In this document: positions 1,100 to 36,481 of the stretch, piece after piece
Position numbering within the stretch: position 1 is the first letter of the stretch
Layout of the letters: every line of letters starts with the position of its first letter
Source of the DNA: an uncultured Verrucomicrobiota bacterium
GTDB taxonomy: Bacteria > Verrucomicrobiota > Kiritimatiellia > RFP12 > UBA1067
Direction of reading: 5' to 3'
DNA length: 40,363 bases
NCBI GenBank assembly: GCA_945613785.1
Contig: CALZAJ010000001.1
Coordinates: forward strand, 1 to 40,363
Notes under the pieces: model-generated
What the model saw: the letters and a program-made list of their open reading frames with translations, nothing else
Told to the model about the DNA's origin: nothing
Databases searched by the model: none
Translations under genes and position numbers: made by a program

Positions 1100-1165
1100 G
1101 GTGAGTTTTTAATTGCCTGATTGGAAATCGGAGGATTGAAGCCCGTGCACGTTCTGAGAGAGCAA

Positions 1166-1918
1166 CTAGCCCAGCGTTTCAACGACCTTGAGGGCCTGGA
1201 AAGTCTCTTTAACGTCATGGACACGGACGACCGAAGCGCCCTTCATAGCCGACCAGACGGCAATGCCCAGGTTTCCGCCAAGGTTCTTTCCCGTCATCTT
1301 CTCGCCCGTCAGTTTCTTGACGATTCGCTTCCGACTCGCCCCAACCAACACCTTTCCAAGCTTTGCCAGCTCGGGGACAGACCCCAACAATTCGATATCT
1401 TCCTCGCGGGAGGTTCCGAATCCGATCATCGGATCAAGATACACCTTCTCGATTCCAATCTGCCCCAGAACTCCGTCCAAGACGTTGGGGACAGACCCCG
1501 AAATCGTGGGGACAGACCCCGACAGTCGGTGAGGAATTATCAGTTCTGCGCCACTTTTTGCACAGATACGCGCCATTGCCACGGCTGGGTCGGCATAAAC
1601 GCAGTTAATAATCTGCACGCCGAGGTCCACGGAGCGCTCCGCCGTTTCGGGATGATAGGTATCCACCGAGAGGGGGACAGACCCCATCATCTCTGGGGAC
1701 AGACCCCGCAGAACCGGTTCAAGGCGGGACCATTCTTCCTCCCAGGTGAGGGGGACAGACCCCGGCCGGGTAGACTCTCCGCCAAGATCGATGATCTCCG
1801 CACCATCGGCGATGAGATTCTTCACGCGGCGAATGGCTTCTTCTGGTTTGTAGAATTGTCCGCCGTCCGAAAACGAATCTGGCGTGACGTTGACAATACC
1901 CATTACCTTGCAGGACAT
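1166..1918 (-). CDS. folP: Dihydropteroate synthase
   Basis: 250 aa. All canonical DHPS blocks are intact: GIVNVTPDSFSDGG, GGESTRPG, SVDT, DPMIGFG, GASRKR, RVHDV. Confidence 0.95.
   Translation of the reverse strand: MSCKVMGIVNVTPDSFSDGGQFYKPEEAIRRVKNLIADGAEIIDLGGESTRPGSVPLTWEEEWSRLEPVLRGLSPEMMGSVPLSVDTYHPETAERSVDLGVQIINCVYADPAVAMARICAKSGAELIIPHRLSGSVPTISGSVPNVLDGVLGQIGIEKVYLDPMIGFGTSREEDIELLGSVPELAKLGKVLVGASRKRIVKKLTGEKMTGKNLGGNLGIAVWSAMKGASVVRVHDVKETFQALKVVETLG
1373..1763 (+). repeat. Array of six perfect copies of the 13-mer GGGGACAGACCCC inside folP (antisense to the gene)
   Basis: Copies at 1373-1385, 1487-1499, 1508-1520, 1673-1685, 1695-1707 and 1751-1763, all in the same orientation. 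In the folP frame five copies read GSVP and one reads GLSP. Confidence 0.95.
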
Positions 1919-1999
1919 AACCGTGTAAATTGTTTGATTGTTGAATTCTTTGATTGGTTAATTGGTTGATTTCCGGAGGCCTTCGCCATTCACCGTTCG

Positions 2000-2641
2000 C
2001 TACAATCCGAGGGTCAGTTGGGAAACGGGACCGAAGCTACGGCGGTGCTCAGGGCAGGGGCCGAGTTTGGCGAGGGCCTCGAAGTGAGCCTTGGTGGGAT
2101 ATCCTTTATGCTGAGCGAAGCCATAACCAGGGTAAAGCTTCTCCAAACGAAGGCAATCCGCGTCACGCGCTGTCTTAGCGAGGATTGAGGCAGCCGCGAT
2201 AAAGAGTGATTTTGCGTCGCCTTTGATCACATTCTGCGCATCAGGGAGCGTGGAGACCGCCAGCCCGTCTACTAGGATGTGGGGTCTGTCCCCAGTCGTT
2301 AGGAGTTTAGCGGCGACTTCATCCGCGGCGCGCTTCATTGCGACGTGGGTCGCGCGAAGGATGTTGAGTTGATCGATTTCAGCAGGACTCGCACTGGCAA
2401 TCGCCCAGGTGCATCCAGGTGTCGTCTTGATGATTTCGGCGAGTTTCTCGCGCTTTTTCTCAGTCAGCTTCTTGGAATCGTTGATTTCAGACCAGGCGCC
2501 CGTCAGTAGGTCTTCGGCTAGCGCGAGAGGGACAGAGACGGCCGCCGTGTAGACACCCCCGACAAGAGGTCCGCGACCAGCCTCATCGATACCCATGACG
2601 GGATCACCGAGCTGCCGCTCAAGCTCGAGCGAAACGGCCAT
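2000..2641 (-). CDS. rnhB: Ribonuclease HII
   Basis: 213 aa with the GIDEAGRGPLVGGV N-terminal catalytic block and a DSKKL motif. ATG at 2639-2641. Confidence 0.95.
   Translation of the reverse strand: MAVSLELERQLGDPVMGIDEAGRGPLVGGVYTAAVSVPLALAEDLLTGAWSEINDSKKLTEKKREKLAEIIKTTPGCTWAIASASPAEIDQLNILRATHVAMKRAADEVAAKLLTTGDRPHILVDGLAVSTLPDAQNVIKGDAKSLFIAAASILAKTARDADCLRLEKLYPGYGFAQHKGYPTKAHFEALAKLGPCPEHRRSFGPVSQLTLGL
2281..2293 (-). repeat. Dispersed perfect copy of the 13-mer (reads GGGGTCTGTCCCC on the plus strand)
   Basis: Lies inside rnhB. In the rnhB sense strand it reads GGGGACAGACCCC and encodes TGDRPH. Confidence 0.95.
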
Positions 2642-4534: not shown

Positions 4535-5407
4535 TCAGGACAGGATCGCGCCGAGATTCGCCATGATGCGGTTGGCGACGGCAGGCTTGTTCATCGTATA
4601 GACGTGCACGTTGTCGACGCCGTTGGCGAAAAGATCGACGATCTGCTCGGTCACATGGGCGATGCCCGCCTCGAGCATGGCGTCGGGATTGTCGCCGAAG
4701 CGGTCCACGATCGCACGGAAGCGCGGCGGCAGAAGCGTGCCCGAAAGCTTGCAGATGCGGGTGATCTGCTTCGCGTTGGTGACGGGCATTACGCCCGCAA
4801 CCACGGGAACCTTGATGCCAGCGGAGCGGATCTTCGCAAGATAGGCGTAAAGGATGTTGTTGTCGAAGAACATCTGTGTCGTCAGGAAATCGAGCCCCGC
4901 GTCCACCTTGTCCTTCAGGTGCGCGATGTCATCCTTCAGGTGCGCGCACTCGGGATGCCCTTCCGGATAGCAGGCGCCGCCCAGGCAGAACCCGGGATAG
5001 TACTGCTTCAGGTAGCGGACGAGCTCGGACGCGTGCTTGAAGTAGCCGGGCGGAACCGCCTCGGCATCCGGCGGCAGGTCGCCACGCAGCGCGAGGACGT
5101 TCGTGATGCCAAGGGACTTCATCTTCGCCGCTTCCGCGGCAATGCCCTCGCGCGTCGCCATCACGCAGGTGAGGTGGGCGAGCGCCGTCACCCCGCAATC
5201 GCGCTGCACGTAATCGGCGATAGCGCTCGTATTCGCACTCGACGTGCCGCCGGCGGCGCCGTAGGTGACGGACATGAACGCAGGCTTCGCCGCGGCGAGT
5301 TCGCGCACGGCGTCCTTGACGGGATCGAGCGGCATGTCGCGCTTCGGAGGGAACACTTCGAACGAGACGCTGGGCTTGCCAGAACTGACGATATCCTTGA
5401 TCTTCAT
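4535..5407 (-). CDS. metF: 5,10-methylenetetrahydrofolate reductase
   Basis: Start set at the ATG at 5405-5407 (MKIKDIVSSGKPSVSFEVFPPK...), giving 290 aa, a typical MetF length. Motifs include SVTYGAGG, the LTC block and LRGD. The longer ORF-track start adds an implausible N-terminus. Confidence 0.9.
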   Translation of the reverse strand: MKIKDIVSSGKPSVSFEVFPPKRDMPLDPVKDAVRELAAAKPAFMSVTYGAAGGTSSANTSAIADYVQRDCGVTALAHLTCVMATREGIAAEAAKMKSLGITNVLALRGDLPPDAEAVPPGYFKHASELVRYLKQYYPGFCLGGACYPEGHPECAHLKDDIAHLKDKVDAGLDFLTTQMFFDNNILYAYLAKIRSAGIKVPVVAGVMPVTNAKQITRICKLSGTLLPPRFRAIVDRFGDNPDAMLEAGIAHVTEQIVDLFANGVDNVHVYTMNKPAVANRIMANLGAILS

Positions 5408-33933: not shown

Positions 33934-34872
33934 ATGATTACCAATCAGGTGCTAATCAACAAAGAGGGCGGCGTTCGACTGGACGCCGCCTTGCTTTTGG
34001 CCTATCCGAGTTCTGCACGCGCGTTCGTTCGCGAGGCCATCGAGGCCGGCGACGTGCTGGTGAACGGTCGGCGTGCGGCGAAGGGCCTCAAGCTCCGCGG
34101 CGGCGAGACGATCCAGATCGCCTCCCTCGCCGAAGCCAATGACAACACGGTCGCGCCGAATCCCGACATCCGCCCGCGGGTCGTCTTCGAAGATGCCGCG
34201 CTGCTGGCGCTCGACAAGCCCGCAGGCATGCCCGTCCAACCGCTTTCGCGCGGCGAGCTGACGACCCTCATGAACGGCGTGGTCGCGCGCTATCCCGAAT
34301 GTATTCCCCTGGGGGACAGGCCCCTCATGGCCGGAGCCCTTCATCGCATTGATGCCGATACCTCGGGTCTCGTCCTTGTCGCGCGTTCTGCAGAGTCCTT
34401 CGAGCGGCTACGCAGCCAGTTTACCGAGCAGTCCGTGAAGAAGACCTATCTCGCGCTTGTGGAGGGCTCTGTCGCCGTCGGTGGCACCTTGGAAAACGAC
34501 CTCATCCACGATCCCACCTTGCCCTTCTGCCGGATGATCGATGCGCACCACAACCGCCTGACCCGCGCGCAACAGGAGAAGCTGAGGCCGCTCCATGCCG
34601 TGACCAACTTCGTCCCGATCGGACACACCACCGTCGAGAACGAGGAGCGGACGCTGCTGGAGGTCACGATCTACACGGGCGTCACCCACCAGATCCGCGC
34701 ACAGCTCGCCCTTGCCGGGATGCACATCATCAACGACCGGCTTTACGGAGCCTTCGCCATCGAAGGACAGGACGGCCATTGCCTCCACGCCCTCGCCGCC
34801 AGGTTCCGCCATCCGCTTTCCGGCGACGAAACGGAAATCCGTACACCCTACCCTTCGTGGGCCAACCTCTAA
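33934..34872 (+). CDS. rluD: 23S rRNA pseudouridine synthase, RluD-like (S4 domain plus catalytic domain)
   Basis: 312 aa with an S4-like N-terminus (VLVNGRRAAKGLKLRGGE) and the motifs LDKPAGMPVQP, HRIDADTSGLVLVARS and HQIRAQ. Confidence 0.9.
   Translation: MITNQVLINKEGGVRLDAALLLAYPSSARAFVREAIEAGDVLVNGRRAAKGLKLRGGETIQIASLAEANDNTVAPNPDIRPRVVFEDAALLALDKPAGMPVQPLSRGELTTLMNGVVARYPECIPLGDRPLMAGALHRIDADTSGLVLVARSAESFERLRSQFTEQSVKKTYLALVEGSVAVGGTLENDLIHDPTLPFCRMIDAHHNRLTRAQQEKLRPLHAVTNFVPIGHTTVENEERTLLEVTIYTGVTHQIRAQLALAGMHIINDRLYGAFAIEGQDGHCLHALAARFRHPLSGDETEIRTPYPSWANL
34311..34323 (+). repeat. One-mismatch copy of the 13-mer (GGGGACAGGCCCC)
   Basis: Lies inside rluD and encodes LGDRPL. Confidence 0.8.
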
Positions 34873-35700: not shown

Positions 35701-36129
35701 TCAGGCCTCGAACGTCGCGTGGGGGTCTGTCCCCAACCGACGGAATTCCGCCGGCAACAGCTGGGCCGATTCGAGTTCGGCCAACGGACACCACAGGAAC
35801 TCAATCCAGTCTTCCTTGGCCTCCACCTTCAGGTCGGCAACCGTCATCTCATAGACCAGGTTGATCTCCGCATGGGGCTTGCCATGCTGAAGGAAACTGT
35901 TCTCCAGACAGCCGAGAAACCGCCCGGTCTCCGCGGCAAGCCCCGTCTCCTCCTGCATCTCACGGACGAGGGCCTGACGCCCCGTCTCGCCGAACTCGAT
36001 GTGTCCGCCCGGCAGATATGTCGTCGACCCGCCCTTGGCCTTGCACAAGAGCAACCGGCCGTCGACAATGCAAACGCCGCGGGCGATCGTCTCAATGCCC
36101 GCCACCTCGTATTCCTTGAGTTCCGCCAT
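35701..36129 (-). CDS. Nudix hydrolase (candidate dihydroneopterin triphosphate pyrophosphatase by context)
   Basis: A perfect Nudix box, GHIEFGETGRQALVREMQEETGL. The start lies 38 nt inside folB. Confidence 0.85.
   Translation of the reverse strand: MAELKEYEVAGIETIARGVCIVDGRLLLCKAKGGSTTYLPGGHIEFGETGRQALVREMQEETGLAAETGRFLGCLENSFLQHGKPHAEINLVYEMTVADLKVEAKEDWIEFLWCPLAELESAQLLPAEFRRLGTDPHATFEA
35722..35734 (-). repeat. Dispersed perfect copy of the 13-mer (GGGGTCTGTCCCC on the plus strand)
   Basis: It lies 22 nt inside the 3' end of the Nudix gene and encodes LGTDPH. This is where two convergent genes abut with no intergenic gap. Confidence 0.95.
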
Positions 36130-36481
36130 CTCTGCGACCTCCTCCGTAGCTGACCGACGCCGACTCCAAGTGCGGAATCGCGCCGAACTTCGTGACCTTC
36201 ACGTGCGCATACCGCACCTTCTCCTCGATGAGACAGGCGTCTAGGACGACCTTGGCCGCATGCTCAAGCATGCGACATTTCTCCCAAATCAAAGACTCGG
36301 AAATCAGTTTCGCGAGCTTCGCATAGTCAACCGTATCCGAGAGGCGATCGCTGCGCGCCGCCTCGTCGCCAATCTCCAGCGACACGTCGACCCTCAGCTT
36401 CTGCGGAACAATGCGCTCATTCGGCAGGTCGCCGATGATGCATTCCACCATGAGTCCGTTCAATTCCAAAGTCATGGACAT
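36092..36481 (-). CDS. folB: Dihydroneopterin aldolase
   Basis: 129 aa. LELNGLMVECIIGDLPNERIVPQKLRVDVSLE and VDYAKL fit the FolB pattern. The Gly/Arg-rich tail is the part overlapping the Nudix gene. Confidence 0.8.
   Translation of the reverse strand: MSMTLELNGLMVECIIGDLPNERIVPQKLRVDVSLEIGDEAARSDRLSDTVDYAKLAKLISESLIWEKCRMLEHAAKVVLDACLIEEKVRYAHVKVTKFGAIPHLESASVSYGGGRRDGGTQGIRGGGH

Follow-up and report, generated by a model that had tools for sequence, protein, structure and literature searches.

The 40,363-nt contig CALZAJ010000001.1 (assembly GCA_945613785.1; the whole stretch is called the window below), from an uncultured bacterium of the Verrucomicrobiota class Kiritimatiellia, carries six perfect copies of a 13-nt word, GGGGACAGACCCC (W1), within folP, the gene for dihydropteroate synthase (DHPS), and one further copy in each of two other genes. 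We found that in related genomes this word bounds an element encoding a Y1 (HUH) transposase and that it also occurs as solo copies and tandem arrays in genes and intergenic DNA. Moreover, it is the nucleotide sequence of the copies that is preserved, and array length varies by whole units within a species. We judge it probable (roughly 70%) that W1 and its close variant W2 (GGGGACWGTCCCC), which on the folP coding strand read GGGGTCTGTCCCC and GGGGACTGTCCCC, respectively, serve as the cognate end word, or recognition word, for IS200/IS605-superfamily Y1 (HUH) elements of TnpA-Y1 subclass 2.1, the terminal inverted repeat-associated tyrosine transposases (TIRYTs), with the copies in the window being derivatives tolerated in protein loops. 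Specifically, we infer that the eight exact copies in the window are solo or array derivatives of the Y1 end word. The folP cluster would then be a long-standing colony of mobile-element words that remains active, and not a folP regulatory device.

Link between the word and Y1 transposase genes

Clustering of all open reading frames (ORFs) of the 118 word loci listed from a scan of bacterial genomes (see the next section) revealed that the families common to these loci were IS200-like Y1 transposases (Pfam Y1_Tnp, PF01797, with E-values from 1e-10 to 1e-17), ABC ATPases, and acyl-CoA ligase-like proteins, with no others. By tblastn, a Y1_Tnp homologue was present in 11 of the 118 listed word loci (827 kb) versus none of 75 unrelated control loci (1.24 Mb; Fisher P = 0.004), and the word was located within ~100 nt of the Y1 gene, often on both sides and in inverted orientation. 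A reciprocal search, in which the Y1 proteins encoded beside the word in one Kiritimatiellia and one Verrucomicrobia locus served as queries, returned 80 loci from the Planctomycetes-Verrucomicrobia-Chlamydiae (PVC) group. Of the 33 PVC homologues sharing 50% identity or more with the query, 22 had the exact word 40–260 nt upstream of the start, most commonly at an offset of −101, and six more (L213, L214, L220, L221, L224, and L225) had a near-exact upstream word (12/13). Several Y1 genes were also followed by word copies in the opposite orientation.

The position of the word relative to the transposase gene is clearest in the Kiritimatiellia metagenome-assembled genome (MAG) SBF912 (JBMNOD01, L212–L223), which contains 12 copies of the Y1 gene that are 85–100% identical to one another, many of them at contig ends. 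When 11 of these copies were aligned, similarity began at the word, with none upstream, which makes the word the left boundary of a multi-copy mobile element; some copies had two or three extra word units upstream. The SBF912 element thus looks like an actively transposing insertion sequence (IS), unlike the single-copy, domesticated RAYTs (tyrosine transposases associated with repetitive extragenic palindromes, REPs).

The variant of the word differed with the Y1 lineage, being W2 (GGGGAC[AT]GTCCCC) in the Verrucomicrobia genome CAMZEN01, GGGGCCAGACCCC in L237, and GGGGACAGGCCCC in L253. In CAMZEN01 (L273 at 2924, 3183, and 3628; L276), W2 was also found in frame within the Y1 transposase ORF itself (…AGTVPEA… and …CGDSPL…), where a paralogue has near-matches; these words are reminiscent of the REPs reported to have inserted into tnpA genes of subclass 2.4. 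The Y1 proteins match PF01797 at E-values from 1e-8 to 1e-17 and display the HuH motifs NHFH, NHVH, and NHWH and the Y motifs YINLNP, YIHLNP, YVHLNP, and YIELNP. Those of the PVC type have a C-terminal extension of ~150 aa with no Pfam hit, and the only trace of a C-terminal helix-turn-helix (HTH) was a weak HTH_23 match in L104 (E = 3e-4, below the cut-off). Against the NCBIfam RAYT equivalog NF047646, the Y1 proteins scored 45–67 bits, under its cut-off of 80.

Distribution of the word across bacteria

We scanned one genome per bacterial species for two copies of a word 5–30 nt apart. Paired W1 was present at a minimum of 118 loci in ~10 phyla, compared with 3 loci for a control word, GGGGAAGCACCCC, that has the same stem and loop composition, and we consequently reject the idea that any G4-N5-C4 hairpin would behave in this way. 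The 1.24 Mb of control loci contained 17 G4N5C4 words, all of them singletons. The phyla with paired W1 were Spirochaetota, Planctomycetota, Verrucomicrobiota (including Kiritimatiellia and Lentisphaerae), Actinomycetota, Bacillota, Pseudomonadota, Acidobacteriota, Bacteroidota, Patescibacteria, and Chloroflexota, and the carriers include cultured isolates of Stieleria, Niallia, Bacillus, Streptomyces, and Pseudoduganella, the isolates alone representing four phyla. Carriage by phages was rejected, as no paired word was found among viral contigs.

Word-bearing or Kiritimatiellia-like contigs were also seen in bins of unrelated taxa, namely L129 (Faecalibacterium sp. CAG:74), L017 (Muribaculaceae), and L048/L073 (Enterobacteriaceae MAGs). 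Some of the MAG phylum assignments may reflect binning errors or contamination, and the phylum count is best based on isolates and consistent MAGs.

The 13 nt form the invariant core of the tandem arrays in the 118 listed loci, with spacers that vary by genome. In a flank logo of 431 distinct copies, conservation did not exceed 0.2 bit, indicating that the unit is exactly 13 nt long, and no cleavage motif conserved across phyla was visible beside the word. The commonest variants of the word alter only position 9 (to G, T, or C). The spacing between neighboring copies has a sharp mode at 21 nt across phyla, and spacings in multiples of three are in excess (48% versus 35% expected, P = 2e-4), which fits the location of many arrays in coding sequence. 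The 21-nt spacing is a preference and not a rule, as very short periods occur in other phyla (16 nt in L032/L045 and 13 nt, i.e., abutting words, at L061 5741–5766). In-frame arrays were found in genes for the NAD synthase NadE (nine copies in both orientations), the biotin-protein ligase BirA, MnmE, a TsaD-family protein (TsaB-like), a GH43 enzyme, and ABC ATPases, as well as in the Y1 gene itself, and intergenic arrays were also detected, again in ~10 phyla.

Copies of the word in the window

A word search of the window located the six folP copies (Table 1) exactly where the sequence-only reading had placed them, all on the plus strand, along with two exact minus-strand copies in rnhB and a NUDIX hydrolase gene that it had overlooked. 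None of 100 dinucleotide-preserving shuffles of the window contained a W1 match. Allowing up to two mismatches added 4 sites versus ~1 expected, so that exact copies greatly exceed degenerate ones, and all W1 copies in the window are intragenic.

The earlier description of folP as unbroken also held, with the word translated as GSVP five times and as GLSP once, and the spacings of the two close pairs had been given correctly as 21 nt (1487/1508) and 22 nt (1673/1695). The product is a DHPS, with a full-length pterin-binding TIM barrel and intact catalytic blocks. Its homologues carry the name Kiritimatiellae DHPS, and the window comes from a member of the Kiritimatiellae that lives in the gut or rumen. 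According to an AlphaFold model (predicted local distance difference test score of 88), every one of the six copies in FolP lies in a loop, in a short strand bridge, or where a helix breaks, and the blocks NVTPDSFSDGG, ESTRPG, SVDTY, DPMIGFG, and GASRKR are invariant in the FolP alignment, consistent with the proposal that the copies occupy tolerant positions.

Direct reading of the sequence shows that W1 contains no stop codon in any of the six frames and that it encodes G-x-x-P in every one of them (GDRP, GTDP, GQTP, GVCP, GSVP, or GLSP). Three frame/strand combinations are used in the window, giving GSVP and GLSP in folP, GDRP in rnhB, and GTDP in the NUDIX gene. W1 is also self-complementary and can form a G4/C4 hairpin with a 4-bp stem and a loop of N5. 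The sequence-only reading had pointed to this fold, which is indeed predicted, but it is weak (−2.9 kcal/mol as DNA); since the control word GGGGAAGCACCCC folds with equal energy, the fold alone is not what sets W1 apart. No credible Rfam match was found in the region from 900 to 2800.

Table 1. Coordinates of folP, rnhB, and copies of the word in the 40,363-nt window
Feature	Position	Strand	Remarks
folP (dihydropteroate synthase), intact, 250 aa	1166..1918	-	Pfam Pterin_bind E = 1e-50, profile 1-244/244
Word copy F, GSVP, residues 179-182	1373..1385	+	Helix break before ELAK...SRKR
Word copy E, GSVP, residues 141-144	1487..1499	+	Variable loop preceding YLDPMIGFG
Word copy D, GSVP, residues 134-137	1508..1520	+	21 nt from copy E
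Word copy C, GSVP, residues 79-82	1673..1685	+	Immediately precedes LSVDTY
Word copy B, other frame, GLSP, residues 72-75	1695..1707	+	22 nt from copy C
Word copy A, GSVP, residues 53-56	1751..1763	+	Immediately follows ESTRPG (loop 2)
rnhB (RNase HII)	2000..2641	-	RNase_HII E = 1e-34; products of 220 and 227 aa in other strains
Word copy in rnhB, coding strand GGGGACAGACCCC, GDRP	2281..2293	-	Single-unit allele of 21-nt array
One-mismatch variant GGGGACAGGCCCC, GDRP	34312..34324	+	RluA-type pseudouridine synthase gene, ORF 33934-34872
Word copy in NUDIX hydrolase C-terminal tail, GTDP	35722..35734	-	Gene 35701-36129 (-)

Conservation and turnover in folP and rnhB

Protein and codon alignments of folP from nine word-bearing relatives and two word-free outgroups revealed that the codons of the word are always GGG-[TA]CT-GTC-CCC, i.e., W1 or W2. 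At conserved degenerate residues, codon identity reached 93% within the words compared with 38% elsewhere in folP. This difference indicates that it is the nucleotide sequence of the word, and not the peptide, that is conserved, and, together with the three frame/strand combinations, it bears out the earlier suggestion of retention at the DNA or RNA level. Between strains the sequences are less telling: the six words lie at identical offsets in folP of the seven contigs compared, and all five folP polymorphisms among these seven strains fall outside the words, but with only ~0.5 expected inside, this is uninformative on constraint.

The sequence-only reading had proposed to see whether the word in folP orthologues is conserved at the same codons or turns over. 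The word, as W1 or W2, recurs at the same loop positions and codons in relatives: sites D/E and C/B carry it in nearly all word-bearing lineages, and site D does so in all of them. The set of sites nevertheless turns over, with 3 to 6 per folP among close relatives, and the folP tree calls for repeated gains, or for losses that restored the ancestral sequence. The loop before YLDPMIGFG holds one to three units, 21 or 24 nt apart, in relatives; the Gly codon at site B toggles between GGT and GGA, and thereby between W1 and W2; and in L294, copies B and C, 22 nt apart in the window, abut at a distance of 13 nt (4708–4733), giving RGLSPGSVPLSVD. At shared sites, one of two sister lineages has only W1 (L206) and the other only W2 (L208), a split that points to concerted change. 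A strict rule of one variant per genome was rejected, as it is obeyed only in part, W1 and W2 being mixed in L292, L293, and L207.

Some sites differ without any change in length. At site A, the window has GGG TCT GTC CCC and L293 has GGG GCG ACG CCG, a patch difference with no insertion or deletion (indel), and L294 has the same G4/C4 stem with another loop in this comparison. At site F, close relatives have CGG TCT GTC CCC (12/13) or W2, again with no indel.

The clearest unit-step changes were observed in rnhB. Among contigs of the same species that are >98.6% identical, the rnhB array consists of 1 (as in the window), 2, or 3 perfect 21-nt units, aacgactGGGGACAGACCCCa, each unit adding TTGDRPQ to RNase HII, so that the alleles read TTGDRP, TTGDRPQTTGDRP, or three repeats (L120–L124, L295, and L296). 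Contig L119 has an N-gap ~55 nt downstream of the rnhB array.

A model for the origin of the copies

In the mechanism that we propose, a trans-acting process tied to a resident Y1 element would make the copies and keep them uniform. This process might bind and cleave the G4/C4 hairpin in single-stranded DNA, re-insert words locally, or switch templates on G4/C4 ends. Spread would be mostly local, through tandem units and the conversion of nearby near-matches, and selection would retain only loop copies. Under this scheme, copies would survive in folP, rnhB, and the NUDIX gene because the word is stop-free in six frames and always encodes Gly-x-x-Pro and because only loop copies pass selection.

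Several observations weigh against the assignment of the word to Y1 elements, or against the simplest form of this mechanism. First, we know of no biochemistry on subclass 2.1 proteins and of no substrate or function assigned to them. Second, tblastn searches of the 40-kb window with seven Y1 proteins yielded no significant match (best E = 0.02), and a further 8.8 kb of sequence before the window start likewise showed no Y1 gene. Words and a Y1 gene do occur together in other Kiritimatiellia and Lentisphaerae MAGs (L065/L212 and ONTV01, with loci L039, L106, and L258), and it is by analogy with the Kiritimatiellia case, L065/L212, that a link to a resident Y1 element may be extended to the window genome. 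Third, the word is uniformly oriented on the folP coding strand in all relatives and has the opposite orientation in the adjacent rnhB. Fourth, the words are extremely clustered in rnhB-folP clade-wide, with 10–15 kb flanks that are nearly empty (0–1 word per relative). A predisposition of folP codons was tried as a general explanation and rejected: across 79 loci whose folP lacks the word, that gene was only 1.2 times as dense as its flanks in sites with up to 3–4 mismatches, and the sole hot position for near-matches was at the GGESTRPG codons. Tolerance combined with predisposition therefore does not explain the rnhB-folP hot spot. Fifth, at least three indel-free sites (A, F, and an extra one in L205, YEGTVPD) are set apart from their counterparts in word-free relatives by substitutions or by a continuous patch, which classical transposition would not yield. 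Finally, Quentin et al. found no REP-like hairpins beside subclass 2.1 genes (PMC6006769).

The aligned sequences of the indel-free sites suggest that a patch or loop may have been replaced, by template switching on G4/C4 ends or by an enzyme-catalyzed exchange. A more specific version, tentative and on balance doubtful, is that the word is written over pre-existing near-matches by a Y1-dependent or G4/C4-primed template-switch process that replaces the loop or patch with the current word of the genome. If true, overwriting would keep the copies uniform within each genome (W1 in one lineage and W2 in its sister) and would create new G-x-x-P turns in essential proteins with no change in length. 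A transposase-linked system would then edit the loops of housekeeping proteins and give rise to in-frame length variants in 7-aa steps.

Alternative explanations

The strongest alternative, which we nonetheless consider unlikely, is that the word is a cis-element selected by the host in folP and nearby genes, either as an array for a binding factor or as a set of mRNA hairpins that tune expression of the folate pathway, and that its likeness to transposon ends arose when the Y1 protein or its sites were domesticated. A host element would account for the 93% codon identity at positions conserved in FolP proteins that are only ~70–80% identical, for the uniform orientation in folP, and for the retention of the central T of W2, where ACA in place of ACT would still encode Thr. 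The excess of exact over degenerate copies, the origin of sites by substitution, as is usual for binding sites, and the location of seven of the eight exact window copies in folate-linked genes (folP or the NUDIX gene that follows folB) fit it as well. However, the arrays in unrelated genes (NadE, BirA, MnmE, the TsaD-family protein, ABC ATPases, and GH43) in both orientations, and those in intergenic DNA, across ~10 phyla are not expected of a folate-pathway device, nor is the coincidence of the word with the boundary of a multi-copy transposase element. The folP site set is also unstable between close relatives, the rnhB array varies by strain, and the NUDIX copy is missing in the relatives compared. 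With respect to the binding array for a protein that the sequence-only reading had envisaged, the array came near the mark, and judging from gene positions its likely partner is the Y1 (HUH) transposase whose gene the word flanks. Nothing favors the mRNA hairpins that it had offered for folP expression, given that the orientation of the word relative to transcription differs between genes, that the hairpin is weak, and that no Rfam family matched.

The same reading had likened the word to DNA uptake sequences (DUS) or uptake signal sequences (USS), which spread by biased uptake and recombination. Placement in coding regions, in frames that give tolerated peptides, is USS-like, and the seeming origin of some copies by substitution would fit molecular drive. 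This analogy did not survive and is now very improbable: ~49 kb of the species (the window plus the 8.8-kb extension, which added no further words) contains 8–10 copies confined to three genes, versus about one per kb evenly spread for uptake sequences; the identical word is found in ~10 phyla and not in one competent family; and neither tandem arrays with 16- to 40-nt periods nor a position at the ends of Y1 genes is a feature of DUS.

Least credible of all is a protein-level G-S/T-V-P motif, an internal folP duplication, or an assembly artefact. Although G[ST]VP recurs at the same FolP alignment positions, its codons are fixed despite the hundreds of synonymous GSVP encodings possible, and a different frame or the opposite strand is used by one of the folP copies and by those in rnhB and the NUDIX gene. 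The sequences flanking the six folP copies are unrelated to one another, and an identical FolP is listed in 312 index blocks of public assemblies, from which 24 contigs were read. Chance, too, is contradicted by these data.

Comparison with known systems

Y1 end repeats of the TIRYT type provide the closest published parallel. TIRYTs are tyrosine transposases flanked by terminal inverted repeats (TIRs) and not by REPs (Di Nocera et al. 2013, PMC3733652). Many of their repeats share GGGGWSAS, and some form dispersed dimers and clusters (PMC3733652). They correspond to TnpA-Y1 subclass 2.1, defined by NHVH/NH[YF]H and YIELNP/Y[IV]HLNP motifs and a C-terminal HTH (Bac_DnaA_C, HTH_23, or HTH_28; Quentin et al. 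2018, PMC6006769), and members occur in ~15% of the strains sampled (PMC6006769, Table 1). Similarly, our word starts with GGGGACAG, which fits GGGGWSAS (W = A, S = C, A, S = G), inverted copies flank Y1 genes (here in related loci only), and further repeats are scattered through the genome singly, in dimers, and in clusters, with a patchy distribution over many phyla and a Y1 core with NH[YF]H and Y[IV]HLNP-type motifs. The word differs from published TIRs, which are longer and species-specific, in being exactly 13 nt and identical in ~10 phyla, in being self-complementary, and in forming long tandem arrays (mostly with a 21-nt period) in frame within housekeeping genes.

Resemblance to the REP/REPIN-RAYT system lies in short palindromic repeats that flank a Y1 gene, are dispersed in many copies, and co-vary with the transposase lineage. 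In contrast, our word lacks a GT[AG]G foot and is 13 nt long versus 20–40 nt, its copies in the window are all intragenic, and the associated Y1 proteins fall under the RAYT cut-off, with a 12-copy transposase in at least one MAG compared with a single-copy domesticated gene. Intragenic in-frame REPs are nevertheless on record, mostly from Opitutus terrae (PVC; PMC3733652) and Rickettsia. Rickettsia palindromic elements (RPEs) are likewise palindromic mobile repeats that lie in frame in essential genes at surface loops with function kept, but they are ~100–150 bp long and confined to a single lineage, are not known to have a transposase, and are clearly inserted. Several copies of our word, in comparison, show no length change relative to word-free orthologues: the host protein is lengthened by 21- or 24-nt units at the folP loop arrays and in rnhB and is not lengthened at sites A, F, and YEGTVPD of L205.

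The cyanobacterial HIP1 word (GCGATCGC) and DUS/USS are also short coding-region words with nucleotide-level conservation at orthologous positions and are thought to spread by substitution or drive and not by insertion. Unlike our word, which is rare overall, strongly clustered, and marks transposon ends, they occur about once per kb genome-wide in one lineage and lack tandem arrays and a transposase. The Y1 HUH enzymes of the IS200/IS605 family (IS608 and ISDra2) work on small hairpins of single-stranded DNA, and by analogy an IS608-type action on hairpins is a plausible basis for recognition of G4-N5-C4. IS608 differs in having similar hairpins at both ends on one strand and cleavage tetranucleotides at fixed offsets, whereas the ends described here are mutually reverse complementary, show no visible flanking cleavage motif, and accompany a transposase with a long C-terminal extension.

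Neither the exact 13-mer, in either orientation or as RNA, was present in the searchable full text of the literature, nor did its 11-mer core match anything there other than unrelated primers and the like. The system is of a known kind, in that TIRYT-type Y1 end repeats and intragenic palindromic repeats have been described before, but it has new properties, namely, a minimal 13-nt unit that is identical across phyla, arrays of ~21-nt period, and dense in-frame colonization of housekeeping genes.

Implications

The self-complementary, phylum-spanning 13-nt end word is a candidate substrate for TnpA-Y1 subclass 2.1 (TIRYT) proteins. Its persistence in essential enzymes (DHPS, RNase HII, NAD synthase, and MnmE) makes long-lived mobile-element words a source of protein variation, including standing in-frame length polymorphism such as one to three copies of TTGDRPQ in RNase HII of near-identical strains. 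The words tend to be uniform within a genome, and they capture the in-frame remodeling of housekeeping proteins as it happens. In DHPS of other bacteria, insertions into loops are known to lead to sulfonamide resistance. On the practical side, the arrays break or gap assemblies (as in the N-run of L119), create long stop-free antisense ORFs, and can mislead motif-based annotation.

Other observations

The one-mismatch variant GGGGACAGGCCCC in the pseudouridine synthase gene of the window (Table 1) recurs 18 times in 11 other loci and is the variant that adjoins the Y1 gene in L253. The NUDIX gene directly follows folB in the window (35701–36481, minus strand), and a synteny break is evident in this region, folB-NUDIX being located three genes downstream of folP in L292–L294 and ~34 kb away in the window. 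Finally, a stop-free ORF of 282 aa (1121–1969, plus strand) runs antisense across all of folP, with the words read there as GDRP and GQTP. This ORF is probably spurious; such words help keep antisense frames open and could mislead gene callers.

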